The notes: generated by a model not told the origin, from the sequence alone. Shown: positions 1-39,504, counted from the first letter of the stretch. The stretch is DNA of 64,000 nucleotides from Candidatus Uhrbacteria bacterium (GCA_016187515.1 JACPJN010000007.1:68046-132045), one strand, 5' to 3'. Made by a program: numbers and translations.

Positions 1-508
1 TGGTCACAATCAGGCCATCCTTACTCACAACAAATCCGCTCCCGCCGCCGACTTGTTGTTTTTTGGGCGGGCCTGGTGGTTGCTGCGGTGCCGGCTCCTG
101 CGGGATTTCAATCTCAAATCCAAATTGGCGAAACAGATCTTCGGGAAATGGTGAGGTCACACTGCGCTGCGCTACTTCTTTACTAATTACAATAGATACC
201 ACGGCGGGCGAGACCCGCCTGACCACCTCAACTGTAGAATCACTCTCTTGTCCCCCTCCCCTAACCCCTCCCACCAAGGGAGGGGAATTCCCTTTTGCTT
301 CCTCCCCCTTGATGGGGGAGGATTGAGGAGGGGGTGCGGCACGCGGCACGATCCATTGTAACGATGGCGGAAGTGACGCCAGCAACCTCTGCCCGATATT
401 ACCCGCGGCAACCTGGGAGGCCACAATACCGCCGGTTACTCCGGCAACGCTCCCCACCAAAAAACTGATGGTAATCGAGGCCAGAATTGTTTTGCGAAAA
501 TCATTCAT
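1..508 (-). CDS. HtrA/DegP-family trypsin-like serine protease, N-terminal part (gene continues beyond window start)
   Basis: Manual translation from ATG 508-506 gives MNDFRKTILASITISFLVGSVAGV (TM anchor), then VVRRVSPAVVSIVISKE and GGGSGFVVSKDGLIVT, a typical HtrA core. Absent from the ORF track because there is no in-window stop. Carries the in-frame family-1 repeat at 250-336. Confidence 0.6.
   Translation of the reverse strand, partial: MNDFRKTILASITISFLVGSVAGVTGGIVASQVAAGNIGQRLLASLPPSLQWIVPRAAPPPQSSPIKGEEAKGNSPPLVGGVRGGGQESDSTVEVVRRVSPAVVSIVISKEVAQRSVTSPFPEDLFRQFGFEIEIPQEPAPQQPPGPPKKQQVGGGSGFVVSKDGLIVT
250..336. repeat. Family-1 G/C-rich double-hairpin element (CCCCTCCC/GGGAGGGG stems, loops ACCA and TTGAT), in frame inside htrA
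   Basis: cccctccc..aagggagggg and cctccccc ttgat gggggagg hairpins. Same architecture as 2210-2298. Confidence 0.8.
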
Positions 509-582: not shown

Positions 583-620
583 CAATCCCCCTCTCTTAAG
601 ATAAGAGAGGGTGGGGTGAG
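583..620. repeat. Family-1 single hairpin (ccctctcttaag/ataagagaggg), intergenic
   Basis: Perfect stem visible in the sequence. Confidence 0.6.
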
Positions 621-690: not shown

Positions 691-726
691 TTGACAAAGG
701 TATTTTTCTATGCTATCATTATACGT
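691..726 (+). promoter_or_regulatory. Sigma70-like promoter (TTGACA-17-TATCAT)
   Basis: ttgaca aaggtatttttctatgc tatcat upstream of the ORF at 782. Confidence 0.4.
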
Positions 727-781
727 CATACTCGCCCTCTCCAGAAGGCGGGGATATGACTCACCTTCACGGAGGACAACC

Positions 782-1252
782 ATGGACACAGGACAGCAAG
801 ACGACAAGGCATACGGAGCGCGGCTGTTGCGCGCGATGTTGCGCACCATGACGCACGCAACGCACCCCTTCACTCGCGACCAAGCGCGGGTGATCATCCG
901 AGAAAACCGGAGACGGGAGCAGGGTGTCCTGTTCCTGGGCTACATCACCGCCGACAAAAAGTCCTCGCGGTGCGAAAGCTGCTCAAAGCCCTTGCCAGCG
1001 GGTGAGATTGCCCTGCTCCTTCTCGAGCAGACGGACGGACATCCGGGCGGAAGAGGACCGAACCACGGAGCGCACATGTACTGCCACATGCTGTGCCTCA
1101 TGGACGGCTTCACGACCCAAAACGACTCCATCCTCAAGATGGCACCGACGATCAAAAAGATTCTCGCCAGGGGGAAGGAAGAAGCGCGTCGGAGTCGCGC
1201 CGCAAGCAAGTCCGCGCCCAAGACCGACCCCGAGAAGCGCAAGCAGCGCTAG
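782..1252 (+). CDS. Hypothetical Cys/His-containing small protein (CxxC plus HMYCHMLC), basic C-tail; high GC
   Basis: ATG at 782 with GGAGGA 6 nt upstream. The track ORF 710..1252 starts inside the promoter -10, so the start was trimmed. GC near 62% versus about 50% in neighbours. Confidence 0.4.
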   Translation: MDTGQQDDKAYGARLLRAMLRTMTHATHPFTRDQARVIIRENRRREQGVLFLGYITADKKSSRCESCSKPLPAGEIALLLLEQTDGHPGGRGPNHGAHMYCHMLCLMDGFTTQNDSILKMAPTIKKILARGKEEARRSRAASKSAPKTDPEKRKQR

Positions 1253-1339: not shown

Positions 1340-1463
1340 CCCCTCACCTCGACCTCTCCCCCTCCAGAGGCGGGCAGGCGCGGGGAGAGGTGATGCTAAT
1401 TGATACCTTATTCAACTCCCCTCTCCCTCTGGGAGAGGGTGGCTGGAGGCCGGGTGAGGGTTT
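1340..1463. repeat. Family-1 composite element (outer stem cccctcacc/ggtgaggg enclosing inner hairpins), forms the 3' tail of the DUF559 ORF
   Basis: cctctcccc...ggggagagg and cccctctccc tct gggagaggg. Followed by a TTTTT run. Confidence 0.7.
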
Positions 1464-1790
1464 TTGGAGCATACTTAAAATAGTTTCTATCACCGCTTTA
1501 GTTTCCCTCACCGCAGCATCTGCTCCAAATCGTATCACTCGATATCCTTGACCTTCTAAATATCGCGTGCATGCCGCATCTTTTTCTATTTGCGTCCCGT
1601 GTTGGCTTCCATCAATCTCGATGATCAAAAATTTCTCCTCACAACAAAAGTCGGCAATATATTGCCCTACCGGATGTTGCCGCGGAAATTTATATCCGCC
1701 AAGTCGTCGGTCTCGCAAAAAACTCCACAATTTCCTTTCGCCGTCTGTTTGCCTGTGACGCAGTGTGCGGGCAAGTTTAACATTTGACAT
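1344..1790 (-). CDS. DUF559 (Vsr-like endonuclease fold) domain protein; C-terminal about 40 aa encoded by a repeat element
   Basis: The track ORF 1344..1844 contains RKLWSFLRDRRLGGYKFPRQHPVGQYIADFCCEEKFLIIEIDGSQH and RVIRFGADAA, which are DUF559 motifs. Start moved to ATG 1790 (MSNVKLARTL); GAGGGG from the upstream hairpin serves as the SD. Confidence 0.55.
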   Translation of the reverse strand: MSNVKLARTLRHRQTDGERKLWSFLRDRRLGGYKFPRQHPVGQYIADFCCEEKFLIIEIDGSQHGTQIEKDAACTRYLEGQGYRVIRFGADAAVRETKAVIETILSMLQKPSPGLQPPSPRGRGELNKVSISITSPRACPPLEGERSR

Positions 1791-1793
1791 ATT

Positions 1794-1833
1794 GCCCCTC
1801 ACCCCGTCCTCTCCCGCGGGGAGAGGGGTATTG
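1794..1833. repeat. Family-1 single hairpin (cctctccc gc ggggagagg) immediately upstream of the DUF559 start
   Basis: Seen directly in the sequence. Confidence 0.6.
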
Positions 1834-1840
1834 TTAAAAA

Positions 1841-2488
1841 TCAAAAATCCACCCCCTTCTGCGCCAGCACTCCTTTGTCATACGGGTGTTTTACTTTTTC
1901 CATTTTGGTTACCAGATCAGCCATTTCCGCAAGCTCGGGATATTCATTGTGTCCGGTCATCAGTAGATGCACCTCCGGCGGCTTGGCGCGGATTAAATCT
2001 TTTATATCATCCACGCTCAAAAGCATACTATCCACGGCCGACAATATCTCATCCAAAATCACCACTTGGAATTTGTTATTTGTAATTTGTGATTTCGCGA
2101 AGGCCAGGCCTTCGCGCGCGGCTTGCTCGTGATCCTCGATCGGCTTGGCATCCCCAAGGATGCGTACCCACCCTTTGCCGACGATGTGGTATTCCAAGTG
2201 TGCACCATCTTCCCCTCCCCTAACCCCTCCCACAAGGGGAGGGGGATTTTTAATTACTCCCTCTCCCTTGATGGGAGAGGGTTGGGGTGAGGGTGAGGAC
2301 TGCTCCAACCATCTAAACATCCTCCCCTCTCCGGTCTCCCACCCCGCCTCGGCCCCGCCTTTCATAAATTGCATAAACAACACGCGCTTCCCCTGTCCCA
2401 GCGCGCGCAAAGCCAGCCCAATCGCGGCTGTGCTTTTCCCTTTGCCATAACCCCAATAAATCATGACCAAACCTTGTTCCATATTCAC
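1841..2488 (-). CDS. cobA: Cob(I)yrinic acid a,c-diamide / corrinoid adenosyltransferase (CobA/BtuR/CobO family) with an in-frame repeat-encoded insertion of about 30 aa
   Basis: Contains GYGKGKSTAAIGLALRALGQGKRVLFMQFMKGG ... HLLMTGHNEYPELAEMADLVTKMEKVKHPYDKGVLAQKGVDF. The insertion SSPSPQPSPIKGEGVIKNPPPLVGGVRGGEDGAH is encoded by the repeat at 2210-2298. Confidence 0.75.
   Translation of the reverse strand: MNMEQGLVMIYWGYGKGKSTAAIGLALRALGQGKRVLFMQFMKGGAEAGWETGEGRMFRWLEQSSPSPQPSPIKGEGVIKNPPPLVGGVRGGEDGAHLEYHIVGKGWVRILGDAKPIEDHEQAAREGLAFAKSQITNNKFQVVILDEILSAVDSMLLSVDDIKDLIRAKPPEVHLLMTGHNEYPELAEMADLVTKMEKVKHPYDKGVLAQKGVDF
2210..2298. repeat. Family-1 double-hairpin element, in frame inside cobA
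   Basis: cccctccc acaa ggggagggg and ccctctccc ttgat gggagaggg. Encodes a peptide nearly identical to the htrA copy (SPIKGE..PPLVGGVRGG). Confidence 0.85.
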
Positions 2489-2530: not shown

Positions 2531-2625
2531 TGTGTGCTATTCGTTATCAATTATTCGTGAGTCATTCGTTTTATATCCGTGATCCGTGGCCATCCGTGTG
2601 TTGTGGCATCAGCCACAACGAGAAA
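2531..2625. repeat. Word-repeat element with ATTCGT(G)/ATCCGTG words (family 5/6-like), intergenic between cobA and nrdJ
   Basis: ctattcgttatcaattattcgtgagtcattcgtt ... atccgtgatccgtggccatccgtg. Confidence 0.5.
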
Positions 2626-5077
2626 ATCCGCAAGCATTGCATTTGGCGCACCCCTCTTGAAAAGCGAGTAACCCGCCGCAATCCGGACAAGCTGGCGCAA
2701 ATCCTAGATCCATGACATCCCCGGTCCCTTTCTCCAGGACCAAGCGCACCGGTTCTTTAAGTCCGCGATCGCCCTCGGGAACCCACTGTAAATCCAATTT
2801 GCTCTGCCGGAACTTCATGTGTTTTTCCAAGATCTGTCCAATCGCGTCCGGCAGAGAAAGGATCATTTCGCCTTTATACCAAACCGGTTGCGGATCGCGA
2901 ATCCCTTTGAGCTGACGAATAACCGATTCAATGTGCACGCCGGAGCGCAAGGAGAGCGAGATCATCCGACAGATGGCTTCCAGATTGGCCGCGAAGAATC
3001 CTCCGGCCTTGCCCATTTGGGAAAACACCTCAAAAGGACCATGCTCATCCTCGTTAATGGTGATATAAAGATTGCCGTAAGCGGACTTGAGTTTATAAGT
3101 CGTACCGCGCAAAACTTCCGGGCGCGGGCGCGGCTCTAAAACATGAATCGTCTGGGCGGTCGCGGTAGCAGTCGCGGAATCAACTTTGCCTTTTCCATCC
3201 TCGGTTTTTCGGCTATTTAAATTCAGTACTTGCTCCTCGCGTGATCCGTCGCGGTAGACCGTCCCGCCTTTGCAGCCCAGCTCCCAGGCCAGCATATAAC
3301 CCTGGCGCACGTCATCGCGGGTCGCGCGGTTGGGAAAATTAATGGTTTTCGAAATGGAATTATCGGTGTGCTGCTGGAAAGCGGCTTGCATGCGGATATG
3401 GTCTTCCGCGGAAATATCCATCGCCGTAACATAAGTCCGCCGCAGATCTTCGGGCAGATCCGTACGGTGCGCAATCGTGCCTTTTTCCATAACATCCTGC
3501 ATCAGCTCCTCGCTCCACAAATTCCGCTCTTTGAGTTTGCGTTCAAAATAGGGATTGGCGTAAAGCAAACTATCGCCGCCCATGATGTTCTCTTTTTTGT
3601 AAGCCAGCGCGAAAAACGGCTCCACTCCGGAAGAACAATCAAAAAACATCGAGATTGAACCGGTGGGCGCCACCGTGGTGAGTGCGGCGTTGCGCTGGAG
3701 CCGATTCTGCCCGGTCGGCCCAAAAATACTCCCTTCCCAATTCGGGAATACTCCTTTTTTCTTGGCAAGTTCTTCGGAATAGTCATGGGCCGTATCGTTT
3801 ACTATTTTCATGACCCGCCCCGCCATAGCCAATCCTTCCGGAGAATTGTAGCCAAGGTCGAGCTGGTACAGCATGTCGGCAAAGCCCATAATTCCCAGTC
3901 CGACTCGGCGATTGTTTCTAAAAGTACGATTAACTTTTTCAACCGGGAAGTCCGACACATCTACGACATTGTCGAGCATGCGCACCGCCATTTTAGTGGC
4001 ATGGCGCAATCCTTCCTCGTCAATGGCCCCGCCTTTTACAAACTTCGCTAAGTTCACTGAACCAAGATTGCACACATCCCCGTCATGCAGCCACTGCTCG
4101 CCGCACGGGTTAGTCGCTTCCAGCCGCCCCAAGGCCGGAACCGGATTAGTCCGATTGGCCGCGTCCGGAAACAGCACGCCCGGCTCGCCGTTTAGCCAAG
4201 CCGACTCAACTATTTTATCCATGAGTTCCCGCGCCGTCAGAGTAACGTCTTCATGCGCAACATACGCGCCGCGGTTGTTGCGCTTAATTAACCGCGGTTT
4301 CATCTTTTGGCCTTTCCACTCGCAAAGCCAGGGCTCTTTGGAATTTGTTTTAACTTGCCGCATAAACTCATCCGTCATTCCCACCGACACATTGAAATTC
4401 ACGATCGTGCCTTCTTTGCGTTTGCAATCAATGAATTCCAAAATATCCGGATGGTCAACCCGCATGACTCCCATGTTCGCCCCATGCCGGCCTTGCTGTT
4501 TGATTACTCCAAACGCGGTGTTATAAGCGTGCAAAAATGAAATCGGTCCGGACGCTTGTCCGCGGCTGGCAACCGTAAGATTCCCCGCCGGACGCAAAAG
4601 ATGCCAGGCAAAGCCAAGGCCCGAACCGGCTTGCTGAAGAAGCGAGGCGTCGCGAAGCGTGCTAAAAATTCCGTCCATGCTGTCTCCAAAATGCAAAACA
4701 ATGCAGTTGGCCACTACTCGGGTCGGTCCTCCCGCATTGGTAATGGTTCTTCCGGCCGGAGTAAACTCAAATCGCGACAGGACCCCATAAAACTCCTTTT
4801 CCCACCCGCGCGTTTCTGCTTCTGTCGCGCCATACTGATATTCAACTTCCGCCAAAGCGCGGGCCAGGCGCAAAAACATTCCTTTCGGCGTTTCCACCAC
4901 CTCGCCCTTTTCATTACGCACCAAATAACGTTTTTCAATCACCCGAATCGCGTTATCGGTAAAACCGAGCTCGCGGCCGTCTTTCCAAATCTGCTCTTTG
5001 GTTACGGATTGCGCTTTGGCAAGATCGCTTTTTGTGGCGTAGGTATAGGAGGTTGAAGAGGCAACCGGCGACATATT
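2609..5077 (-). CDS. nrdJ: Adenosylcobalamin-dependent (class II) ribonucleotide reductase
   Basis: 836-aa ORF with B12-dependent RNR features across its length. Start set at ATG 5077 (MSPVASS); the track start is a GTG further upstream. Confidence 0.85.
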   Translation of the reverse strand, partial: NMSPVASSTSYTYATKSDLAKAQSVTKEQIWKDGRELGFTDNAIRVIEKRYLVRNEKGEVVETPKGMFLRLARALAEVEYQYGATEAETRGWEKEFYGVLSRFEFTPAGRTITNAGGPTRVVANCIVLHFGDSMDGIFSTLRDASLLQQAGSGLGFAWHLLRPAGNLTVASRGQASGPISFLHAYNTAFGVIKQQGRHGANMGVMRVDHPDILEFIDCKRKEGTIVNFNVSVGMTDEFMRQVKTNSKEPWLCEWKGQKMKPRLIKRNNRGAYVAHEDVTLTARELMDKIVESAWLNGEPGVLFPDAANRTNPVPALGRLEATNPCGEQWLHDGDVCNLGSVNLAKFVKGGAIDEEGLRHATKMAVRMLDNVVDVSDFPVEKVNRTFRNNRRVGLGIMGFADMLYQLDLGYNSPEGLAMAGRVMKIVNDTAHDYSEELAKKKGVFPNWEGSIFGPTGQNRLQRNAALTTVAPTGSISMFFDCSSGVEPFFALAYKKENIMGGDSLLYANPYFERKLKERNLWSEELMQDVMEKGTIAHRTDLPEDLRRTYVTAMDISAEDHIRMQAAFQQHTDNSISKTINFPNRATRDDVRQGYMLAWELGCKGGTVYRDGSREEQVLNLNSRKTEDGKGKVDSATATATAQTIHVLEPRPRPEVLRGTTYKLKSAYGNLYITINEDEHGPFEVFSQMGKAGGFFAANLEAICRMISLSLRSGVHIESVIRQLKGIRDPQPVWYKGEMILSLPDAIGQILEKHMKFRQSKLDLQWVPEGDRGLKEPVRLVLEKGTGDVMDLGFAPACPDCGGLLAFQEGCAKCNACGFSRCG

Positions 5078-5355
5078 TACTATAAAATTATGAGAGTTTT
5101 TAAAGAGAAAAAAATACACCTCCTTTGCGCTTCAAAATTGGGCGTGAAAAGTGGAGGTTTATCCCTACTCCTTATCCATTGTACGCTATCCCCTCCATGG
5201 GCTGTCAAATTTGCAAAAATACCCGCACTTTACTGCTGTTTTTCTGCCTGGCCGTCGCGACAATTTATTTTCTGTGGATAACCGTCTGAAATGTCTCGGT
5301 GGATAAAATCAAAACCGCCCCTTATGGGTCGGTTTTGATTTCGTGCTGCTTCGTT

Positions 5356-8516: not shown

Positions 8517-8894
8517 TCATTCCTTTTTCTTCACCTTTTTATAGATTGCATTAAATATAAGATTCAGCTCCTTTGCTTCTTGCCAGAGAACTCGTGCCTC
8601 ACTCGCAAGTTCTACTACGGCTACAGCAATCATGCGAAGAAAATGTTTTGCTTCCCGTGATTCTTTTTTACATATACCAATTTTGTGCCGAAAATCCTGT
8701 CCACTTTCAGCATCATCAGCTTCACAATAATTGGCTCCTATACTCGTGCCCGCACCCACCAATTGTGGAACAAGACGCTGGGTTACTGGAGTCATGGGCA
8801 CTCTCTTTGCAAATTTAATGATATCTTCCCCAAATTTCGCTGTTCGTTCTTCTAAATCCCACTTCTTATCATTGGGGCTTTCTTCTTTGGTCAT
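8517..8894 (-). CDS. Four-helix-bundle protein (23S rRNA intervening-sequence protein family)
   Basis: GAGTSIGANYCEADDAESGQDFRHKIGICKKESREAKHFLRMI. Confidence 0.7.
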   Translation of the reverse strand: MTKEESPNDKKWDLEERTAKFGEDIIKFAKRVPMTPVTQRLVPQLVGAGTSIGANYCEADDAESGQDFRHKIGICKKESREAKHFLRMIAVAVVELASEARVLWQEAKELNLIFNAIYKKVKKKE

Positions 8895-8924: not shown

Positions 8925-9401
8925 TTAGGTTAATTCTTCGAGCACTTTCGCTTCTATCTTCTCCATCTTCCTCGCCTCTTTCTCTTGAACATGATCATAC
9001 TCCAGGAGGTGCAGGAAGCCATGCAAGGCCAGTCGAGCAATTTCGTAGTTCATGGTCCACCCGCACTTTTTTGCCTCGCGCTTTGCTTCCGGAAGGGAAA
9101 TAAAAATATCACCCAAGTCAACTGAAGAACGTAGGGACTTATGAACTAAAGAACTCGATTGTTCTTTCGTTCTTTTATTCTTTCGTTCTTTTGTTGTTCC
9201 AAACGCCAGCACATTCGTCGTCCTATCTTTCCCGCGATACTGACTGTTGAACGCGCGCATTTTTTCATCACCGACAAAACTGACTGATACGGCTGTACCG
9301 CTAGGATATTTTACATTCTTCGCGGCGTGCTCAATAATTTTTTTTACCACGCCGTCATATTTTTTTGCAGATGACAGTTCGTATCGAACAACAATTTCCA
9401 T
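8925..9401 (-). CDS. ybeY: rRNA maturation endoribonuclease YbeY
   Basis: HGFLHLLEYDH metal-binding motif. Contains a low-complexity insertion of about 30 aa. Confidence 0.85.
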   Translation of the reverse strand: MEIVVRYELSSAKKYDGVVKKIIEHAAKNVKYPSGTAVSVSFVGDEKMRAFNSQYRGKDRTTNVLAFGTTKERKNKRTKEQSSSLVHKSLRSSVDLGDIFISLPEAKREAKKCGWTMNYEIARLALHGFLHLLEYDHVQEKEARKMEKIEAKVLEELT

Positions 9402-13821: not shown

Positions 13822-16800
13822 TTAATCTAAGGCCGCCCCCTCCTCGACTAGCACTCCACCGGAAAGAGTGGAGATGTTGCACTGATTGTCACAATAGGTA
13901 CAGCCCACTAAACCATAGCCCGGCGTACACCGAGTCCCATTGGAAGTTCCTTCATCACATTCCTCTGGATCAGTACACCGGCCACGACCGCAATCCTGGT
14001 CGCGCCGACAGGTCACGCCGTCACGATTACGATCGCCAGTGCCCACACACACCAGTCCCTGATTGAATCCGTCGCCACATTTTGCGTGCTTGCAGTCGTT
14101 AATGCAGCCATCCGCATTTTCCGCCGCATCGTTTTGCCCGTCGTTCGTGGTTCCATCGTCACACTGCTCATTTCCTTCGCGCGCGCCATTGCCGCATTGT
14201 CCTTGGGCAACTGTAGTGAGACCGCCCCAACGACATGGACCACCACTACGGCAGGCCTGCCGCCAGAGATACGGGTAGCCCTCGGGCTCTGTAAACTGTT
14301 GACTGTCATAAACATGCGTTCCATCCCACTGGATTGGCCCAGTAAATTTACAGCTACCAAATGACGTATCGCAATCAGAATCTTGGCGGCAGGGCTTTCC
14401 AAAATCCGAAGCCCCCCACACCCACATACACACCTGTGGACTCTGGCGAGTATCTCCCGCTTCGCACTGCTCATTCCACTCTTCCTGTATCTCATTGTCT
14501 CCGCACCGCGCCCCTGGCCCGGAGCAGTCAAACCGACAACACCCATAATCGCCATTGACACATGCTGCACCGCTGGAATTTGTAGAATCACATACTTCGG
14601 GTCCATTGCGCGTACCGTCGCCGCAATAGGCACTAAGTGCGGTTGCTGAACATTGACCCCACGGGAAACAATTATTATCCTCGGTGCAGATATTTCCCTG
14701 ATTAGGCCCCCCGATGCAGGTCCTAGCGCATACCGTATTGCACTTGCCATACTGACCATTTAACAGCCCATCATCACATACTTCGCTTCCTTCTCTTATG
14801 CCATTACCGCAGATTACGCCGCCTTGGCATATGTCAAGGTTGGATGTCGGGTTTTGGGATCCACCCCATATTTGCCAGTCAGTCACCTGCGGAGCATCAT
14901 TCCACTCGCACCTATTCGTGCACGCCCGTACTGCCTGGCACTGCGATGAAAGAATACAAACCCCTTCATTGTCAGCGCAGTTTTCATCATTAACACACTC
15001 CTTCGAAGGATTCAAACTGCATGAACGCAACGGAACACATGAAGAACCTCTCGCATGCAACGTACAGGTTGAACCAGAATCTGGGAACCTTGGGGCTGTT
15101 GATATTACCCCGGTTTCTGGATTACACCTTTGCCGAAATCCCCCCTCAAAGGGGGCACCAGGGTCACCACAGTATCCAAACCAACGGGCTTGCTGGACCT
15201 CTTCCTGCCCCACTTCGCAGAATTCCTGGCAATTATTCACCCCGCACGAAACCCCGGGATAATTTGCGCAGGTTCCGTCCGGGAGACATTCACCACGTTC
15301 AAGAATTCCATTGCCGCAGGTCGCCGTGGCATTGGACCATAATCCCCCGGCTGGCGCGCCCGGCGCGCTCACCCAGGAACAATTGCTCGGGGTTAGCAGG
15401 TTGGTTCCCGCCGGATCAAAATTAAACACTTCCCAGCGGCTCTGCCCGGGAGCTGGCGGACGATACAGCAGTTCAAAATCTACGCCCAATTCATAGTCCA
15501 CTGCCCCAATCGCGCGATACTGATACACGTGGGATCCAGCCGGACAGCGGTAGGTTTGGGTCTGTTCATTCCAGCAAGTCGCGGGATCAAATTGCCCGCG
15601 CTCGCCTGGAATCGCGGCACAGCCCGGCGCGAAGCTATTGAGCGGATCTTGCGGCAAGGAGGCGCCCAATGTTGCGCCAAGCGTGGCCTGCCAAGAAGGC
15701 CATTTGGAGGTGGACATGGAACGGATAAAAGTGCCGGCCTGAAGCGGCGGATAGCGTCCGTGAGTATTGCGGTAATCCTCCAGTGCGGATTGTATCGAAC
15801 TGATATGATTTAAACGCAATAGATCTCGGCGCAGCTTGTCTCGGTTGGAGTTCTCGACATTCACATTAAGCTGGAAGTTGGAAACAAACTGGTCAAACAC
15901 TTGCTGCATCGCGCTGGGCGCGTTTTCAGAAAGCGAAAGCACGTAGATATTGCTGTACACTACTTTTAATGTGGGGACGTACCTATCAGTAACCGCGTTT
16001 GTGCCAGCGACATACACCGTATTCCGGTCCCGGATCGCCTCATAACCATCCACCCCGGGATTAATTGGCGCCGGAGTTCCAGTAAAGCCCATTTGCTCAT
16101 ACCAAGTTCTGACCGGCAAACGCCTCGGGTTTGGAAATACCCGAATTCCAATGGCCTGCTGTTTTTCTGCTGATTCAACCAAAAGATACTCCTTCAGCGG
16201 AGCAGGGCCAGTATGGCTGGTGGCGATACGGAAGGTGTCCAAAGTAACCGGCGCACCCTCGTCCGCGCCTGCCGCGGGAGGACGAATCGCGCCCGGGTAA
16301 ATTAAAGCCGGCAAATCGCCTGCGAGGCCCTCCTCACCACTGTCGCGGCAGTACCAAGTGCGAAAATTCATGGGGTCTCCTCCGCCAAGGAGTGCGCCTT
16401 CGCGATCCTCAAACCGCGGCAAGGGGTGCTCAATACGCGATGGCCAGGGATTTTCGCACAGCGTGGTAATAAATTCCGCGCTCCCCTCGCGCACCGCGTC
16501 CTGATGATCCTCCGGCTGCGGAAGCGCGCTGGCGTCAGTAATTGTGGCAGTGGCATTCACGTCCGTCTCGCCATTGCGATTCCCGGCAGTTACGGTTTGA
16601 TCTGGATCAGCGTTGATCGGATCCGCAGCGTTGATGGGATCCGGCTCATTGGTAACGCTGGCCACGGTATTTTCCGCTGATCTCCAGGACCAGGCCCAGG
16701 AATATCCGGTTGTCCGCTGCAGCGCCTGCCCGCTGCTGGAGAGCGCCTCGGCCCGAACTTGGGCCTGCTGCCCGGGACGAGAAAAACCCGCGCCGCCTTC

Positions 16801-19800
16801 TCCTTCAAAAATGCTCACCGCTTCATCCGCGCCAGTTACGTTAACGCGCACGTTTTCCACGGTACAGATCTCGGATCCGGTAGTGAAGTTCCAACTTGAA
16901 TCTGTTCCGCCTTCGGCAGCGGGACCGCGGAAGGCCACGCCGAAAATCGAGCGCACTCCAGAAGCGATCAAATCATTAAGGTTCGGGTCGCCAGCAATGG
17001 TGATCTGATAATCTGTCGCGTTATCCAAAATCCGCGAAGGTTGCAGGACTAAACGACTCCCCTGTGCTGCCGATTCAACCGACGCCTTTAAGCTCAAGGA
17101 CGGATCAGCGCACCACACCGAATTTCTTGCCCGGCCCTGAAGAGTCAGGCCATCCGGACACGTCGCAGTGTTTTCAACACGCTTGGCAATTCCGATCGCT
17201 TGATCAAGATTTGCGGAATCCATGGGTTGATCAAAAGTTACTTCCAAAAGTCCATTGGGACAGGCGTCTGGCGTATTGATGCCCGGCACGCGCTCCACAA
17301 TTTTCGGGCGAAGATAACAACAGTTGTCGCTCCCGCGGCCCACGGCCTCGGATGGCCCTTGTCCGGGCGTTGGACAATCGGCTTCGCTGCGGGCCACGCA
17401 AAATACGGTAATACTGGCGCTGCCCGGCGCGCCCGCTTGTCCCTCCACCGCCGCCTCTACCGCCACCGTACTCCAAGGATTAGGCGGAGCGCAGACCGGA
17501 AAATTCTCATCCGTACAATTGCCATTGCTGCTACAGGGCGCGCGCGGTTCCTTAAATTCTCCGGTCTCTTTGCGGCAGAACTTCCGAATCCCCAAGGCCC
17601 TGGCTTGCTGAATTGGATCAATGCGCCGAGGCGACTCCGCAACCGTCCCTTCATTAAGACAGCGCGCGGAACAGCCGTCTCCGGCAGCCGTATTGCCATC
17701 ATCACAGTCCTCAAAACGATCAATCCTCCCATTGCCGCAAAACGGCGAAGGAGTTCCTTCATTAAGACACCGGGATGAACAGCCATCGCCATTGGCGCGA
17801 TTATTTAACTGATCGCATTCTTCACCGGCCTCCACTAATCCGTTGCCGCAGGTGGAAACCGGAAGAGTGCCTTTTAAAAGACACGTGGCTGGGTCGCAGA
17901 ATTCCGAAAGAAGGGGGGCACCTAAAAGGTCGCGGTAACGCTGCTGGTCTTCGGGATCACATTCTTCCCCGCGATCAATCTGCCCGTTTCCGCAAGTAGT
18001 CGCCCGAGAAGTCCCTTCATTCCGACACTGCGTAGAGCAGCCATCGCCCGGTAAAACATTGCCGTCGTCGCAATCCTCGCCATTTCCGGGTTCCGGGTCT
18101 CCGCCACTGCCGCAGCAATTGGTTTGCTCCGGAGCGACACAGCGCGCCAGCGCTCCGGCGTGCAGACAACTCGCGGTGCACCCGGGCAAGCCGGGCGGGT
18201 CGCATTCCTCGCCCGGATCAATAATACCATTCCCGCAGGCGAATCTTCCGAGAATTCCCGCGCTGGATCCCTCGTTTAAACACTGCGCTAAACAGCCATC
18301 GCCATCTATTAAATTTCCGTCATCGCAATCTTCCGCGTATTCCCGCACCCCATTGCCGCAGGAAGGCAAACGATCCACTCCGGTCCGCACTACTCCGGCA
18401 ATCATGGTATTGCCCACCACGCCGGCGACCCGATCATCTTCTTCAAGTTCCGGATCGTCAATCTTCCAACCCCAATCGTAGGACAGCGAATTTAAGCGCT
18501 GGCCCTGCGGATCGCAGGCATCCGGAGCGCTCCGCGGCTCCGCGGAAAAACTCGCGCGCGCGCCGATAAGATAGAGCGCGGCTTGCGGAGGGCTTAATTC
18601 CACGCGATCAACCTGACAGGATGACGCGCCGGTTTTAAAGGTCCAAGAAAAAGTATTGCACTGCGCGCCCGCGCACTTCCCTGGCCCGGGAGCGAGCATC
18701 GCTCCGGTTATCGCGTCACGGCCGGCCCAATTGTAGGAAAAGTTCAGTCCGGCCAGCGGCTTGCCCGGTACGGAGCTGTCGCGGCGGCTTGAATGTAGGC
18801 CAGCGCTGCCGCCTTTGAGTAAAACCCGATAAAAAGTATTGGGCAGTAAGAGATCTTCTCGCGCCGAGGTGGCCGGGTTATCGGTAAGTCCGATCTCCAG
18901 GGTATTTTCTGCGCTCTTCCAAGAAAGTGCGGGGCTCAAAACTCGCTCCGCCAAGCGGCCGGGTTTAAGACAGCGGACGGTGCAGAGCGGATCACGCTCG
19001 CCCCCATCGCAACCGATATCTTCGCCATTGTCCAGCACGCCATTGCCGCAAAGCGCGGGTTCGGATCCCTCGTTTAAGCACTGCGGTAAGCAGCCATCGC
19101 CGGAAAGGCGATTGCCATCATCACAATCTTCCGCGTACTCGCGCAAACCATTGCCGCATTGCGCGAAACGCGTTCCTTCATTAAGACAATTGGGGGAGCA
19201 GCCATCGCCCGCGTTGGTATTGCCGTCATCGCAATCCTCCGCTTCCGAGGCAAGGATCCCATCGCCGCAAGCCGGTACTGACCCGGCGGCAATTGAACCT
19301 TCATTAACACATACTTCGGAACAGCCGTCTCCGGGCCGCAGATTGCCGTCATCGCAGTCCTCGCCCAGTTCAATGCGGCCATTGCCGCAGCCCTGACCTC
19401 CGGCGGAAGAGGGACGACGCGTGCCGGTCCACTGACAAATACTGGTGCAGAGATTGCGCTTGGCCGGGGTGTTTAAAAGCGGCGAATTAGGGTCGCACTC
19501 CTCGCCCGGATCAATCTGGCCATTGCCGCAAAGCAGCGGACTTACCGGATTGCCCCGCCTTAAACAGTCCTGCGGATCGCACCACGACGCAAATTCGTGA
19601 TCAAAATTCACTTCACATTCCTCGCCCGCTTCCAAACGGCTATTGCCGCAAACCGCGAAGTTCGAACTGGTCCCCTCGCGAAGGCATTGCGCGGAACAGC
19701 CATCTCCGGCTTGTCGATTCCGATCATTATCACACTCCTCACCCGGATTAATTTTACCGTTTCCACACAGCGCGGGTCCGGTTCCCTCGTTTAAACACTG

Positions 19801-22800
19801 CGACGAACAGCCATCGCCGTTTTCCAGGTTGCCATCATCACAATCTTCTCCGCGGTCAAGACAGCGGCCGCCTTGGCAGCTCTCTCCTGGCCCGCACTCG
19901 GAAGCATTGCGGCACGCCCGTCCGTCTCCGCAGCGCAGAGAAAAGTTTGATCCCTCATTAAGACAAACTGCGGAACAGCCGTCTCCGGAAGTCGTGTTGC
20001 CATCATCACACTCTTCTCCCGTCTCCACGCTGCCATTGCCGCAAGGCACGGCCCAGAGTAACGCGTTTTGAACATTGGTCACGCTTTGGGGATGCAAAGT
20101 GTTTGAGGAGGTAAACATGGCCACATTAAACCGCGCGGCAATCTTGGCGTTGGTACAGGCCTCTCCGCAAGCCGGCCACCATTGTATTACTTGCGGGTCC
20201 ATAAATGAAATCTTGAGCTTCCCAAAACCGGTGGTCCGTGGGGGCTGCGGCGGAGTATGCGCGCGGACTCTGATCTCTTCGCCTTGGGTGTCTTCCAAGG
20301 CAATTACGGTTACGGTCCAGGGCATGTGCTTACAATACCCTCCAACACAGGCCTCGGTCACGCAAGTATTGGGCTGACCGCCGCAGTCGGCATCTACCTG
20401 GCACGGCGCGTCGTAATTGTTGGAACAATGGCTGTACCCGATCGCGCACTCCGCGTCTTCACTACAGGCCTTGCCGATCGCCGGGGAAATTCCGCTGGAA
20501 TTATAAGTAACCGCCGCGCGCTCCGGATTCTCCGTATCATAGACATCCCAGGCCCACGAATAGTCGTCCGACGACGGCACTACGCAAGGATCGTCAAGCG
20601 CCACGGGAATTGCTAAATAATCAATCGGCTCATTTTCCGTAGTGGCCTCATAAGGGCTGGGCACCACCGCGATCCCGCCGACTTGACAAAGATTATTGTC
20701 CGGATTGGACTCGTTTTTGGTTTGAAACGCAAAACAGTACGCGGCGCGCGCGTCTCCGCAGCGGGATAAGCCGTCTGGAAGCGGGATCATGGGCTGGCCT
20801 TGAAGAGCGCCGCGATCTTGCGCGGTAATTCCTCCGGTCCCGCCCAAAAGTACCACGCGATACCAGGAACCGGCTGAAAAATTATCCGACAGCCAGAAAC
20901 TAAATCCTAATCCGCCGGAATACGGCCCAAATTTACGGCCGAGCGCCTGATCTTCAACTTGGCTGCAGGCCTCCCCTTCAATCTGGACATCATCAACATA
21001 AACCGCGAAGTCCTCTCCGGAACTCGCCTCCTCGCCAACCTCATAAGGATCGCCTTCCAAAAATACGCGCACATAGCCGGGAGCATTGCCATTAGGACTG
21101 GCATCAAAGGTCATGGTTACCGACACCGGCTGCCACTCATTGGTGAGCGTAATTTCGGACCGAACTTTTTGCCAAAAACCACGGGTGGCCAGACAGGTCC
21201 TTTGTCCGGCATTGGTTTGGCTCGCGCACCCGGTGTCCGCAGTACAAGCCACTCCGCCGGATATTCCGCCGCAACGCATTCCGTCAGCGCCGCCCGCGCG
21301 TTGAATTAAAATTCCGGCGCGCTTCCCCGCCCCCGCGGCATCAACCGCTTTCATCCACGCGGTTGCCGTATATATTTTCCCGCTGGTATCGGCAATGGCA
21401 TTGGCTTGGTACCCAAACCAATGCTCATAATTTTGTTGCAGTCCGCGAGTATCTCTCCATCCTGGGCCGGTGTCGTTGTCCAGCTTGGTAAGGGCGAGCG
21501 CAAAATTGCCCGGATCCGCACTAGAAGCGCCGCGCCCAGCGCCTAGCACGGTTTCCACCCCCAACAAATCCTCGTGGCGAAGGTTTGTCGGCGGATCCAG
21601 CGTGGGCTCTGGCGGGCGGCCCCACACGGCAGTATCCGCGGTGAAATTCGGACTTCCAAAAGTGGTGTCCGCGCCATTCAACAGTTCGGTCGGCGCCGTG
21701 CACTTTTGGAGCTTAATCGTCTGCGAATTTAAGGTCGCCGGATCAACCCGGGCGTCCGGATTAAAACTCACTGCCACGGCCGCGTTAACGCATACTCCGG
21801 TATTTGATCCTCTTCCGGATTCGACAGCCGGCGACGGCGAAGGCGGATATTGCGGAAAACCTTCCGCGTCGGCTGCTTTATCGCATCCTTCAAACACCGT
21901 CGGGGTAAGCGGGGCCTGGGAGGTGGTAAACTGCCAAGCAAACGCGGACTCCCCGGGCTGCGCGCCAGCGCAGTCCGCCCTACAAGTTCCGTCTCCACAG
22001 CAAGTCAGACCTCCGAGCGCGGCGCAATCCAAGCGCGCTTCATCAGGGGCCGGCAACCGGCAATCACCAACCAAAAACGTCCGCAAATTCGAAGCGCGCG
22101 TGATCTGGCCTCCTCCAGCTTGCGGAAAATCATTTTGTATAATTACCTCTCCGGCTGGAGTCCCAGCCACGGTGTTTCCGGGCACTTGCGCGCATACTTC
22201 TTGCGCGTCCCAGCCACCGCGCGGACAAGCATCCAAACGGATACCTCCGACATTGGTGAGCGTGGCCGGTAAAGTCGGCGCCCAGGACTGATCCGCGGAA
22301 CTCCTGCGCGCCGTAAATAGCGCCCCGCGGCCGGAAGCCGGCGCGGATCCAAACCGATCTCCAAAAATGCTGACATTGGTAAACGTTGGGCCGGAGGCCG
22401 GCTCAATACAAGCTAAAAATGGCGCGGCTGACTCTTGATCTAAAACATCAAAATCCTTGGGACTGGACTGCTGACGATCATAACGCTGCACATAAAGGTA
22501 GGCGCCATCATCAAAAAGAAGATCGGAGGCGCTGCCATCTTCATCCGCGTCGTGGATATCCAAAATGCGCGGCACTTTAACCGTGATCTGTATTGGACTC
22601 CACCAACTGCTCCCGCATTGCGAAGGAAAGTCCACGTTTCCCTGCACTCCTCGCCCATCGGAAGTAACAAACCAAACCATTCCGGGGGTATCGCCGAAAT
22701 TCCGTCCGGAAATGGTGCACCCGGCCCCTGGCCCGCCGCGCGCCGGATTATCTTCCGGCGCGCCCGCGCAAACTACCGTCGTAATAATTGGCAAAGTGCC

Positions 22801-24832: not shown

Positions 24833-26896
24833 TCAAAATCCGCACGGCCCAGCTTGCGCCACGCCATTGCAACAATAAGGAGTGGCTGCCGTGAGATCTC
24901 CTTGACACTCGCCTGACGGGAAATAACAATTCTGGAAAAGATCTTTAACGTCCGAGTCAATCCGACTGGTATAATCGGTTTCTTCCCAAAGTCCGCCGTT
25001 TAAAATATCCGCCCGGGTTTGTCCATACGGGAAATCATCCAAATCCTCGGCCAGATTTTGACTGCCCACAGTCCACCAAGTGTCCCAGAACCCGCCGGTT
25101 AGCTTATCAGTGCCGGCCAAGTTCAGATTTCTGGAATTAAGCGTCGCGGCCGCCATGGCTCGGTTAAAGGTAATGCCCAAGGTCGTCTGTAAAGGCACTC
25201 CCGGCGTAACTGCACCGGCGGTCACCGTGGGAGTCGTGAGCGTTACCTCGGGCGCCCCGAGCAAAATCTCGTGGGAAGTATAAAATGACCAACGCACGTT
25301 ATCACCTCTGGCCGGATTTTCCGCGTTACGGCTAAAGAAAGTCGTCTCTGCTAAATCACCCGGGCCTTGCGCGGCGCCATTGCCATTGCCATCCAGCGAA
25401 TTGCCCGCGACATCTTCTATGCCGTCCAAGCCACCGGACGAGGTCGGACCGCCTTGGGAAGACAGCGTGGCGGCCAGGACCTCCCCGCGAATCTGACGGC
25501 CGCCCGGCAAGCAAAACACGTCTCCGCCGCAAGAATTAACCGCGCACCGATCTTGACTGATAAATTCCGCGGTCTGGTATTGATTGGCCAGCTCAAACCG
25601 ACCGGCCACAAAACGATACTGATTATCCGGGGCTGGCTCGGAGACCCGCATGATCTGATAGGTTCCCTTCTTAATCTCCCCTTGGTCAGTAACCGCGGTT
25701 ACTCCCGAGGCCACGGTCGGCAGAATCGGTTCGCTGAAATTAATCTGGACAATGGAGTTGCGCGGAACATCTTTTCGGCAGGGCGGACTGGCGCACGCGC
25801 TTTCATCTCCGGCATTATCCGGCAGCGGAATTACGCTGGTGATGCGCGGCGGAGTCAAATCTAAAAAGGTGCCGACTTCAAACGACCACTGATAATCCGG
25901 AAAGCGCCCGGCAAACGCGGGTAGGCCGTTTAAGAGTTTAATCCCCTCCCGCCGACAATTACCTCCGCGGGAAGCGGTGCCGCATAAATAGACCGTGTAG
26001 GGGGTGTCTTCTTCCGCGCTGCCAAAATAAGCCCGCTGCGCGTGGTTATCGCGAGATACCGGCGTGAGCACCAAAGTGCGCAAATCGGTAAAACTTACCA
26101 GCACGTCCGCGTCTCCGGCCGCGCTTCCCAAATACCGATCCTTATCGCTTTCGCGCACCGAACCCTCAATATCGGCGGTGCGGATAATTTGAATCGCGTC
26201 CGGACGCAGCGTCAGTCCCGGAACTGACTTACGTGTATCAATTACGCCATCTTGATCCGCGTCCACCGCGTCAAAATACTGCGGGTTACCTTGCGCGTCT
26301 TTTGCGAGAGTATCCGCAAAACTCGCCGGATCAACCGCGTCTTTAAAAGTAATCAAAATTCGCACGTTGCGCGGAACTCCGCGTTGTCCGCGAGTGGGAT
26401 AATGGCTCTCCACCATGCCGGAACCGAGCGCTCCTCCGCCAACTCTTGCGGCGGCAGCGGAGGGCGGCGGCAAGGGCGGCGCCTCCAATCCGGAGGTCAG
26501 CGCGCGCAGCACAAACAAAACAATGCCATAAGCCGAAAGAATAATCGCGAGCCCAATGGTCGCGTCAATCAACACCTTTTTGGCTTTTTCAATCTGCTCT
26601 TCATTGCCGGCCGAGGTCATCCAAAGATACCCGCCCCAAAGAATTAAGATGAGCGCCACGACCCCTAAAAACCCTAATGCCACTTGAATGATCTTAGCCA
26701 CAATCACCCGCGGGTCACTCACGGGCAAGATCAGTCCGGCCTGCCCGGGGACTGCCGCGATCTCCTCCCCGGTGCGGATCTCGAGGGTAGGCGGAATTTG
26801 CGCCGCGACAAAAACCGGCCATACCAAAAGTACGCCTAGGGCTATGGTAATGATTATCGCCTGAAATCGACGCATGTAATCCCAGATTATGCTCAA
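24833..26896 (-). CDS. 687-aa secreted protein with the same N-terminal T4SS-pilin-like domain plus Ig-like domains; paralogous to the N-terminus of the giant protein
   Basis: TGEEIAAVPGQAGLILPVSDPRVIVAKIIQVALGFLGVVALILILWGGYLWMTSAGNEEQIEKAKKVLIDATIGLAIILSAYGIV. Sits 20 nt upstream of the giant gene on the same strand. Confidence 0.85.
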   Translation of the reverse strand: MSIIWDYMRRFQAIIITIALGVLLVWPVFVAAQIPPTLEIRTGEEIAAVPGQAGLILPVSDPRVIVAKIIQVALGFLGVVALILILWGGYLWMTSAGNEEQIEKAKKVLIDATIGLAIILSAYGIVLFVLRALTSGLEAPPLPPPSAAAARVGGGALGSGMVESHYPTRGQRGVPRNVRILITFKDAVDPASFADTLAKDAQGNPQYFDAVDADQDGVIDTRKSVPGLTLRPDAIQIIRTADIEGSVRESDKDRYLGSAAGDADVLVSFTDLRTLVLTPVSRDNHAQRAYFGSAEEDTPYTVYLCGTASRGGNCRREGIKLLNGLPAFAGRFPDYQWSFEVGTFLDLTPPRITSVIPLPDNAGDESACASPPCRKDVPRNSIVQINFSEPILPTVASGVTAVTDQGEIKKGTYQIMRVSEPAPDNQYRFVAGRFELANQYQTAEFISQDRCAVNSCGGDVFCLPGGRQIRGEVLAATLSSQGGPTSSGGLDGIEDVAGNSLDGNGNGAAQGPGDLAETTFFSRNAENPARGDNVRWSFYTSHEILLGAPEVTLTTPTVTAGAVTPGVPLQTTLGITFNRAMAAATLNSRNLNLAGTDKLTGGFWDTWWTVGSQNLAEDLDDFPYGQTRADILNGGLWEETDYTSRIDSDVKDLFQNCYFPSGECQGDLTAATPYCCNGVAQAGPCGF

Positions 26897-38646: not shown

Positions 38647-39504
38647 TTATGTTACCACCTCCGCCCCGCGCTTGCGCACAATCACCGTATGCTCAAAATG
38701 CGCCGAGGGTTTGCCATCGGCCGTTACGATGGTCCAGCCGTCGGGTTGCACATTGACGCGCCAGGTTCCTAAATTTACCATCGGCTCAATCGCAATCACC
38801 ATTCCCTCTTGCAGTATGCAATCCGGAAATCCTTCCACCCAAAAATTCGGGATCTCTGGCGGTTCGTGCACGCGGTAGCCCACGCCGTGTCCGACGAGTT
38901 CGCGCACAATCCCAAACCCAAATTTCTCCACATACTTTTCAATGGCTTTGGAAATATGGCTAACGCGATGACCGGCGCGCACTTGTTTGATGCCAATCTT
39001 TAACGCGCGCCCGGTTACTTTGATCAGTTCACGCACCTTGCGATCCACGCGGCCGACCATGACTGTGCGTGCCGTATCAGTATAGAGACCCCTCCTAACC
39101 TCCCCTTGTAAAGGGGAGGAAATTGTTTCATTTCTCCCCCTCTCGGAGGGGGAGTGAGAGGGGGTCCGTAGAACCGGCCACCGCATGCCGATGTCTATTT
39201 TCACAAGATCTCCATCCTTAATTACCCGCGACGGCACCGCCGGCGCGTGCACTACTTCCTGATTTAGGCACGCGCAAATCGTCGTGGTAAACGGCGGATG
39301 ATCCGGCCGCGGCGCGTAGCCCTTAAACGCCGGCTCTCCGCCGGCCTCCCGAATCATCCGCTCCGCCGCCACATCAAGTTCTTCGGTCGTTACTCCCGGC
39401 TTTACCATTTTACAAAGTCGCTCCAAAATCTTCGCCAAGCGCTTTCCGCCTTGGCGAATCAACTCCAGCTCCTTGGGGTTCTTTATAGTTGCTCCGCGTT
39501 CCAT
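38647..39504 (-). CDS. map: Type I methionine aminopeptidase with an in-frame repeat-encoded insertion of about 32 aa
   Basis: VVHAPAVPSRVIKDGDLVKIDIGM [insertion] GLYTDTARTVMVG ... HGVGYRVHEPPEIPNF ... IEPMV. Confidence 0.9.
   Translation of the reverse strand: MERGATIKNPKELELIRQGGKRLAKILERLCKMVKPGVTTEELDVAAERMIREAGGEPAFKGYAPRPDHPPFTTTICACLNQEVVHAPAVPSRVIKDGDLVKIDIGMRWPVLRTPSHSPSERGRNETISSPLQGEVRRGLYTDTARTVMVGRVDRKVRELIKVTGRALKIGIKQVRAGHRVSHISKAIEKYVEKFGFGIVRELVGHGVGYRVHEPPEIPNFWVEGFPDCILQEGMVIAIEPMVNLGTWRVNVQPDGWTIVTADGKPSAHFEHTVIVRKRGAEVVT
39085..39168. repeat. Family-1 element (cctcccctt gtaa aaggggagg / ctccccctc tc gagggggag), in frame inside map
   Basis: Seen in the sequence. Confidence 0.85.

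Follow-up and report, generated by a model that had tools for sequence, protein, structure and literature searches.

The gene for ATP:cob(I)alamin adenosyltransferase (cobA) of a Candidatus Uhrbacteria bacterium raises the question of what an 88-nt palindrome is doing inside the reading frame of a conserved enzyme, how it came to be there, and how the protein accommodates it. We approached this from the whole 64,000-nucleotide stretch of DNA in which the gene lies (hereafter, the window), where the gene and the parts of its element are placed as follows.

1841..2488, minus strand: cobA, ATP:cob(I)alamin adenosyltransferase, 215 aa (Pfam PF02572, CobA/CobO/BtuR, E 3.7e-52)
2211..2298, no strand: cobA element, an inverted doublet of two triplex-motif units forming a G/C-rich 88-nt palindrome
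2212-2220, TAA, 2224-2244: left unit of the element, made of a C-box, the TAA and a hairpin
2245-2258: AT-rich spacer of the element
2259-2281, TTG, 2285-2293: right unit of the element, made of a hairpin, the TTG and a G-box

A reading of this DNA made from the sequence alone (the sequence-only reading) had quoted two hairpins within cobA, and both are present: the left one (2224-2244) reads CCCCTCCC-acaag-GGGAGGGG and the right one (2259-2281) CCCTCTCCC-ttgat-GGGAGAGGG. Together with the outer C-box (2212-2220) and the outer G-box (2285-2293), they turn the full 88 nt into a single extended palindrome. Computed as RNA, it folds at -61.5 kcal/mol (z -5.2), and computed as DNA at -30.7 kcal/mol (z -4.65), with 0 of 200 shuffles as stable in either case. 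The same reading placed the element in frame, and the open reading frame (1841..2488, minus strand) indeed continues without interruption throughout the 215 aa.

In the protein, the insert corresponds to residues 63-96. The PF02572 match is split around it, residues 98-215 aligning to profile positions 56-172, and the CobA chains of PDB entries 1g5r and 4hut likewise align to the window protein in two separate stretches. The NCBIfam TIGR00708 score of 156.8 bits lies just below the cut-off of 167.75, an example of how the insert pushes a real enzyme just under a family threshold. NCBI has the same protein, at 100% identity, from Candidatus Uhrbacteria, in an entry that begins two residues later. 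An AlphaFold (AF2) model, computed with a homologue alignment as input, gives a helix at 53-64, coil through residue 96 and a strand at 97-103, so that the insert falls in the loop between these two elements, the kind of position that had been anticipated for a tolerated insertion. The insert coil is modelled with pLDDT values of 42-49, and the model as a whole matches Salmonella CobA (1g64, 1g5r) with a TM-score of 0.81-0.87 on the target (Foldseek); we therefore describe the insert as a predicted extra, disordered loop on an intact CobA fold.

When the orthologous sites of related genomes were compared, the element behaved as an insertion, as first suspected. Seven close CobA orthologues (P0006, P0008, P0011, P0012, P0014, P0015 and P0021), with up to 84% identity over the aligned parts, have 4 residues where the window protein has 34 (P0006, P0008, P0012 and P0015 being 177-aa forms), and at the cobA locus of the relative L005 the site is empty at the DNA level. 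The earlier estimate of about 30 added residues stands as the net figure, 30 codons, with the refinement that this gain arises because 34 residues take the place of the 4 found in the empty-site orthologue. The flanks of the cobA junction, filled in the window and empty in L005, are too diverged to define a target-site duplication or the insertion boundary. Other relatives have something else at this site. The L001 gene (79% protein identity) carries the same doublet with TCCTCCCCC/GGGGAGGA where the window has CCCTCTCCC/GGGAGAGGG, a compensated stem change in which one hairpin is altered on both arms; L003 has a single long-form unit, L006 an unrelated 38-nt insert, and L088 a different, AT-rich palindrome. 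An assembly artefact was considered as the source of these inserts and rejected, since P0002 comes from two independent metagenomes and the L003/L004 locus from two sources.

The element of cobA is one of several in the window, and a small nuclease gene of the DUF559 family lies among them. The remaining copies, together with this gene, are given here in order of position.

252..334, no strand: doublet, in frame in the gene for an htrA-like serine protease (minus strand; the gene starts at 508 and runs off the window)
589..620, no strand: single intergenic unit, hairpin plus G-box, between htrA and the ORF at 710-1252
1340..1460, no strand: doublet directly 3' of the DUF559 gene; in gene sense C-box, spacer, hairpin, then hairpin, G-box
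1461..1790, minus strand: DUF559 (Vsr-like PD-(D/E)XK) nuclease gene, core of 110 aa (Pfam PF04480, E 2.6e-36; tblastn)
1795..1826, no strand: single unit in the gap from the stop codon of cobA to the start codon of DUF559
29264..29345, no strand: intergenic doublet upstream of scpA; hairpin and G-box, 17 nt, C-box and hairpin
36258..36337, no strand: doublet, in frame in recO (35887-36708, minus strand), encoding NPPQPSLTLREGAANNPPLKIRGGAGG
39089..39164, no strand: doublet, in frame in the methionine aminopeptidase gene, map (38647-39504, minus strand)

In total there are 14 units, one large-loop copy counted among them, at 8 sites, 6 of which are doublets. Perfect pyrimidine/purine hairpins with a stem of at least 7 bp number 13 in the window, compared with 0.055 +/- 0.23 in 200 dinucleotide shuffles, and a scan of the window that allowed one mismatch returned no further copies of the element. 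A tally of in-frame against intergenic copies, which the sequence-only reading had proposed for the whole genome, comes to 4 against 4 sites within the 64-kb window, the in-frame ones being cobA, htrA, recO and map. Given that about 90% of the window is coding, these counts correspond to about 0.6 sites per kb of intergenic DNA versus 0.07 per kb of coding DNA, a roughly nine-fold per-base enrichment outside genes, as expected if selection removes most coding insertions. The recO and map copies, the intergenic copies and the unit-flanked DUF559 gene downstream of cobA had all escaped the earlier reading.

The copy in htrA, which that reading had called near-identical to the one in cobA, is real, in frame and in the same orientation; its identity is 80% over 87 nt on the same strand (253-339 against 2212-2298), short of the earlier wording. 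It reads PPPQSSPIKGEEAKGNSPPLVGGVRGGG and falls in the linker that joins the N-terminal membrane helix to the protease domain. In RecO, the Pfam RecO_N match covers residues 1-74 and RecO_C residues 153-256, aligned to profile positions 52-155, which places the insert before residue 153. For methionine aminopeptidase, the alignment to the Thermotoga (T. maritima) structure 1o0x breaks at query 107/134 versus chain 110/109, leaving about 26 extra residues at a site that we take to be the beta-hairpin between the two metal-binding aspartates. Among the relatives, the htrA site is filled in L003 and L006 as it is in the window, the element following the residues LQWIVPR in both; their arms vary from those of the window, yet remain complementary. 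Further in-frame units occur in YbeY (L003) and pyruvate kinase (L006), and the YbeY loop carries different palindromes in the window and in L003.

How such DNA can remain open to translation follows from its composition. Arms of pure C/T or pure G/A cannot encode a stop codon, so that stops are possible only in loops, spacers and arm junctions, and as a consequence 2-3 of the six frames are open in the coding copies. The intergenic doublet at 29264-29345, laid out like the flanks of the DUF559 gene but with no gene between its halves, has stop codons in 6 of 6 frames. Two candidate origins of the symmetry were discarded on these data. Codon bias as the cause of an apparent palindrome was rejected on the hairpin excess over shuffled sequence (13 against 0.055), on the intergenic position of 4 of the 8 sites and on the one copy with stops in every frame; a repeat arising at the protein level was rejected as well. 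What had been called a palindromic DNA element is just that, a multi-copy palindrome in DNA and not a protein motif.

The same observations bear on whether the inserted peptide could itself be selected, as a functional Pro/Gly-rich flexible loop or linker in CobA, HtrA, RecO and methionine aminopeptidase. Two lineages whose proteins are 79% identical both retain the insert in frame, and the coding copies use the frame that gives P/S followed by G/E/R residues, both of which would suit such a function. However, the peptide differs between the cobA orthologues (PSPIKGEG becoming SSPTSGEE) while the pairing of the DNA is preserved, the seven close orthologues do without it, the region is predicted to be disordered, and the same DNA is also found between genes, with one copy closed in all frames. 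We accordingly hold selection on the peptide to be very improbable.

Repeats of the BoxC/PIT/TMECO type have been known for decades, first from Escherichia coli, and we know of no function, partner gene or spreading route assigned to them so far. Judged by its sequence pattern, the cobA element is a member of this family of intrastrand-triplex repeats, an affiliation that the sequence-only reading had missed. The published TMECO pattern, CCCTCNCCC-N3-6-GGGNGAGGG-N3-GGGNGAGGG, has one exact match in the window (2259-2293; 0 expected), covering only the right half of the cobA element; the left half and most of the other copies use variant arms. What the units have in common is a third block that mirrors the adjacent arm: among units with asymmetric arms in all loci fetched, the mirror arrangement fitted better in 76 and the direct one in 6, with 34 ties. 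Window examples include CCCCCTC|tag|CTCCCCC and CCCCTCC|tgca|CCTCCCC. An alignment of 26 units with MAFFT contained no internal gaps and, because loop lengths differ, left the hairpins out of register; a covariance model was therefore dropped and direct counts were used.

The family was described by Holder et al. 2015 (PMC4666352), who counted 3610 TMECO across 262 proteobacterial genomes; for E. coli MG1655 the count is 23, all of them intergenic. According to that study, the repeats often occur as inverted pairs and are tied to locus variability, neither an association with flanking genes nor a link to mobile elements was found, and the motif folds into an intrastrand triplex in vitro, with no stable triplex found in vivo. 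The triplex reading of units of the cobA type is thus already known from the TMECO literature, and the window units share with these repeats the succession of C-rich arm, loop, complementary G-rich arm, short loop and mirroring second G-rich block, as well as their multi-copy occurrence, often as inverted pairs, in variable loci. Unlike the TMECO of E. coli, which are always intergenic and have no associated gene, half of the window sites are in frame in conserved genes, the host is a bacterium of the CPR, and units bracket DUF559 genes. Many window arms also depart from the literal TMECO pattern (CCCCTCCC, CCTCCCC, CTCCCCC and others) with the mirror and hairpin rule kept. No in-frame BoxC-type copy in a conserved enzyme, in CPR or other bacteria, is described in the literature that we searched; the cobA case shows a repeat of known type in a role that is new, within a reading frame and in a CPR bacterium.

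Membership in this family also touches on a possible role at the RNA level, where the element would stabilise the mRNA, serve as a processing site, pause translation or act as a terminator. As RNA, the hairpin is predicted to be very stable (-61.5 kcal/mol), and around DUF559 copies stand at the ends of genes. In earlier experiments that PMC4666352 cites, however, neither promoter nor terminator activity was seen for PIT/TMECO elements, and an Rfam search with the element returned nothing at gathering score, sub-threshold matches being eukaryotic miRNA hairpins only. A terminator within four essential-type genes would moreover be harmful, and copies are found in either arrangement at unrelated positions. 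An RNA-level role is, in our estimation, highly unlikely.

The gene directly downstream of cobA offers another way into the question of how the units spread. Its annotated ORF extends to 1344, through the downstream units, and beyond its core. The DUF559 profile matches PDB entry 3hrl (E 6e-39), and there is a weak match to I-Bth0305I, a homing endonuclease (3r3p, E 1.4e-3); across 16 homologues, E58, D60 and D71 are invariant and H64 nearly so, a Vsr-like set of acidic residues and histidine. Read in the sense of the gene, a hairpin and a G-box precede it and a C-box and hairpin follow immediately, with a further unit after these. The upstream unit (1795-1826) runs hairpin, G-box and then ATG and is conserved in L088, where the architecture of the downstream doublet (1340-1460) is found as well. 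DUF559 is likewise flanked by units in L003, L006 and L088, its placement relative to nrdJ, cobA and htrA varies among these relatives, and a 937-bp insertion containing the DUF559 cassette is present in L088 and absent from L005. Transposases, Y1_Tnp included, were not found among the 45 window ORFs scanned with Pfam (about 21 short ORFs lay outside the scan).

To place this arrangement in a wider context, we surveyed 80 DUF559 loci in species-representative genomes, drawn from Proteobacteria, Chloroflexota, Nitrospinota, Binatota, Planctomycetota, Bacteroidota, Cyanobacteria and other phyla. Within 200 bp of the gene there were 72 hairpins upstream and 80 downstream, compared with about 0-4 per 100-bp bin beyond, and none inside the DUF559 genes of these 80 loci. 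Hairpins were present upstream in 56 of 80 loci, downstream in 62 and on both sides in 48. The box stood on the gene-proximal side in 35 loci versus 6 upstream, and in 37 versus 5 downstream. In 8 of the 48 loci with hairpins on both sides the flanks were exact inverted copies of each other, loops included, where random pairing gives 0.26, and direct copies were seen at one locus. The strict TMECO pattern lies right at the DUF559 flanks in 27 of the 80 loci, and it also adjoins ycjD of E. coli. DUF559 genes of many phyla, ycjD of E. coli and the gene next to cobA among them, thus have the units as inverted terminal repeats, in 48-62 of the 80 loci. Annotation is affected as well: terminal extensions such as LSPxGGEGRVRG and PSPCPLPKGER, found on DUF559 homologues in many phyla, are translated units, pipelines thereby creating spurious N- or C-terminal extensions of the forms LSPxGGEGRVRG and PSPxPLPxGER.

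Of 5426 complete E. coli genomes, 3375 have the ycjD region. In E. coli O157:H7, TetR/RND genes replace it and there is no precise deletion, and E. coli genomes lacking ycjD still carry TMECO copies. Full-text literature searches returned no paper connecting DUF559 with these repeats, so that DUF559 as a candidate partner gene appears to be undescribed in the literature searched, and it is not listed as a defence protein in PADLOC. A published survey groups VSR, DUF559 and the homing enzyme I-Bth0305I together, and a proven homing endonuclease belongs to the Vsr/DUF559 clade (PMC3239194, PMC3424549). A DUF559 protein of Caulobacter, for its part, acts as a Vsr-like repair nuclease (PMC12907096).

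Units of this kind extend well beyond the CPR. A metagenome scan with the pattern of the left-unit subfamily returned at least 120 stretches, of which we read 80 loci with G+C contents from 0.38 to 0.70. In-frame copies of this subfamily, confirmed by Pfam, were found on unrelated metagenome contigs in UvrA (two contigs), an RmlD-like protein, DUF6391 and an ImuB-like protein. Within the metagenome loci read, 6 of 86 unit matches adjoin a DUF559 gene, and each of the 5 DUF559 genes found in these 503 kb either abuts a unit or has one within 50 bp; the 6/86 adjacency fits non-autonomous copies and, equally, independence from DUF559. Since the hairpin and mirror rule allows few arm sequences, exact matches between taxa need not mean recent horizontal transfer. 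A 61-aa concatenate of the inserted peptide, searched against a database of 5.8 billion proteins, gave 3 weak matches, presumably a low-complexity effect.

From these observations we consider it probable that the cobA insert is a selfish doublet of the BoxC/PIT/TMECO class, tolerated as a disordered loop, with DUF559 likely acting in trans. The insert would be a copy of a non-coding selfish repeat, consisting of two units in inverted orientation, each built from a short pyrimidine-arm/purine-arm hairpin and a third block that mirrors one arm. An ancestor of this Uhrbacteria lineage would have acquired such a doublet in the alpha2-beta3 surface loop of its CobA, and the survival of the doublet there may be put down to three properties: it added exactly 30 codons; its stop-free pyrimidine and purine arms leave 2-3 of the six frames open; and the frame in use would yield a disordered peptide rich in Pro, Ser and Gly that leaves the P-loop fold undisturbed. 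The peptide would then be a passenger, and the symmetry of the DNA what is conserved. The small DUF559 nuclease, whose unit-bracketed gene lies downstream of cobA, would spread the units in trans, in a role likened to that of the RAYT transposase for REPINs or to that of a free-standing homing endonuclease. On this reading DUF559 would recognise or cut the units, dispersing them as a result, and the hairpin or triplex folding of the units would matter in vivo.

The main rival to this explanation is that the units spread and turn over with no dedicated enzyme: hairpin or triplex folding would stall replication, and slippage, template switching and illegitimate recombination would copy, delete and reshape them, with DUF559 being either a nuclease of the repair type or a selfish gene in its own right, one that lands or is retained at such unstable sites. 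Holder et al. indeed tie TMECO to local instability and propose stalling and slippage (PMC4666352), and one and the same loop can carry different palindromes in close relatives (for cobA, the window, L003 and L088; for YbeY, the window and L003). The arms of the solo copies are also diverse, and TMECO persist in E. coli genomes that lack ycjD. Left unexplained by an enzyme-free process are the precise placement of DUF559 between a G-box and a C-box, and the loop-exact inverted flanks in Chloroflexota, Nitrospinota, Cyanobacteria and Proteobacteria. On balance we think enzyme-free spread unlikely, if much less so than a role for the peptide or the RNA.

For dispersal by DUF559, the arms are informative in a further respect. 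Among the units of solo doublets in the window, the right unit of cobA is the only one that shares its arm with the DUF559 flanks, the solo arms being otherwise diverse, which indicates that there is no single, recently expanded population matched to one nuclease. This diversity, together with the TMECO of E. coli genomes without ycjD, counts against a model of one nuclease and one repeat. The repair-type DUF559 of Caulobacter and the negative results of Holder et al. on mobility and on triplexes in vivo are further points against the DUF559 step. With these in mind, we advance only tentatively, as possible and well short of probable, the broader proposal that DUF559 and units with the BoxC/triplex motif constitute a pan-bacterial gene-plus-repeat system like RAYT-REPIN, in which a structure-specific nuclease recognising hairpins or triplexes in DNA would disperse the units and, in compact CPR genomes and occasionally elsewhere, these would seed disordered loops in essential enzymes.

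Comparison with known systems helps to delimit what is shared and what is particular here. The weak but specific match of the DUF559 profile to 3r3p likens the nuclease to Vsr-like 'EDxHD' homing endonucleases such as I-Bth0305I, and some members of that group are free-standing selfish nuclease genes (PMC3239194, PMC2677866). Unlike homing endonuclease systems, the present DUF559 consists of one small domain and is associated with neither an intron nor an intein. In-frame MITEs, such as QMITE of Coxiella and ERIC (PMC5896051, PMC10969869), resemble the units as short non-autonomous inverted repeats that are occasionally tolerated within ORFs, and terminal inverted repeats, a MITE feature, are present in the sense that the whole cobA element is palindromic; unlike MITEs, the units come with no transposase-bearing parent insertion sequence that we found, and across the diverged flanks at cobA no target-site duplication is visible.

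The likeness to REPIN-RAYT systems (Bertels & Rainey 2011; PMC3116915; PMC3337134) goes further, in that both have doublets of two inverted hairpin repeats with a spacer, and many solo copies next to few copies of a small gene flanked by inverted repeats. RAYT is a Y1, IS200-like transposase, whereas the flanked gene here encodes a Vsr-like PD-(D/E)XK nuclease and mobilisation is putative; nor are the window copies confined to extragenic space as REPINs are. REPs, as outlined in PMC3733652, have GTAG or CGTC as a tag at one of their ends, and among 33 units read directly no conserved tetranucleotide was found at either end. The units that flank DUF559 nonetheless give a concrete hypothesis for the origin of BoxC-type repeats, one that is testable in E. 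coli.

Rickettsia palindromic elements (RPEs) were the comparison made by the sequence-only reading, and the likeness holds for behaviour, that is, for in-frame insertion compatible with the fold; it does not hold for sequence anatomy, which is that of BoxC/PIT/TMECO. RPEs (Ogata et al. 2000), as summarised in PMC10969869, are about 100-150 bp long, restricted to Rickettsia and marked by a conserved peptide in each family. The units described here differ in their length of about 35 nt (doublets about 80-90 nt), their G/C-rich composition, their combination of hairpin and mirror, their occurrence in many phyla and their candidate partner gene. Set against the RPE families by description, the Uhrbacteria host, the unit length and the G/C-rich triplex anatomy argue against membership. 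Like RPEs, however, they are palindromic selfish repeats that lie in frame in unrelated housekeeping genes, place their peptide at fold-compatible positions and have intergenic copies as well. BoxC-type repeats act in an RPE-like manner in the CPR, in cobA, htrA, recO and map of the window and in ybeY and pyruvate kinase of its relatives, and do so elsewhere in UvrA and an RmlD-like protein; with in-frame copies across these taxa, repeat-driven insertion of loops into proteins is wider than the Rickettsia case.

Two protein loops carry different palindromes in the window and in its relatives. In YbeY, the loop holds a triplex-motif unit (936-956) in L003, a relative's locus with a unit-flanked DUF559 gene, whereas the window has a different insert of ~27 aa there, an AT-rich purine-arm/pyrimidine-arm palindrome with a DNA fold z of -2.7. 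The same is seen in the cobA loop of L088, the closest syntenic relative, where cobA is followed by DUF559 and the flanking units are as in the window. At L088:2690-2725 an AT-rich palindrome, CCCGCCTAAATTTTGC-ttc-GCAAAACTTAAGCGGG, takes the place of the window's G/C-rich doublet, to which it is unrelated. These differences suggest that both loops are insertion hot spots or, alternatively, that palindromes turn over in place. The window genes concerned and their neighbors are as follows:

1841-2488, minus strand: cobA, adjoining the class II ribonucleotide reductase gene
2609-5119, minus strand: class II ribonucleotide reductase that depends on adenosylcobalamin (TIGR02504; score 629 bits, cut-off 400)
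8517-8894, minus strand: 23S rRNA intervening-sequence protein gene (PF05635)
8925-9401, minus strand: YbeY gene, with the AT-rich palindromic insert at 9116-9200

Since CobA makes the cofactor of the reductase, the insert-bearing cobA is probably under strong selection. The reductase of another such relative's locus, L006, is 1189 aa long and contains an intein with a LAGLIDADG domain, compared with which the window copy is intein-free. PF05635 genes are common to the window, L003 (1201-1593) and L006 (15535-15912).

Five further window genes were annotated:

710-1252, plus strand: 180-aa ORF with htrA on one side and the DUF559 cassette on the other
13822-24813, minus strand: 3663-aa protein, N-terminal PF18895 domain
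24833-26896, minus strand: neighboring 687-aa protein, N-terminal PF18895 domain
39643-39999, minus strand: 118-aa ORF made up entirely of the C-terminal helix-turn-helix domain of DnaA (PF08299 at E 9e-29)
62264-63403, plus strand: AAA_14 + DUF4143 ATPase (hit to PDC-S01, a candidate defence family in PADLOC, at E 5e-50)

The 180-aa ORF had no match in Pfam, NCBIfam or PADLOC and lies within a segment that differs among the relatives. Both PF18895 proteins begin with this type IV secretion pilin-like domain, continue with Ig-like, TIG and DUF4215 repeats, and look like giant surface proteins. The 118-aa ORF is immediately upstream of map, adjoining it on the higher-coordinate side.

DUF559 genes also accompany units outside the window. 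The reading frame of P0124, a 169-aa homologue from a Logan contig with 80% identity to the window's DUF559, runs on across its 3' unit and takes in the C-terminal portion of an O6-methylguanine methyltransferase domain, with the PCHRVV motif (PF04480 + PF01035), and this cassette may have been inserted into, or fused with, a methyltransferase gene. In Rickettsiales bacterium AM-377-L16 (L014:2270-3040), arrays of several tandem and inverted units lie on either side of a DUF559 gene, with four exact matches to the TMECO pattern. BoxC was reportedly first described in the region of envM, another name for fabI. In E. coli K-12 the fabI-ycjD interval (L209:2700-2945) holds a TMECO at 2706-2740; ~40 nt of the 3' end of ycjD, the DUF559 gene (GAGACGGTGCTGGAGAATATTC...CTGAACCG), are duplicated between ycjD and this TMECO, and there is also a degenerate unit overlapping the stop codon of ycjD.
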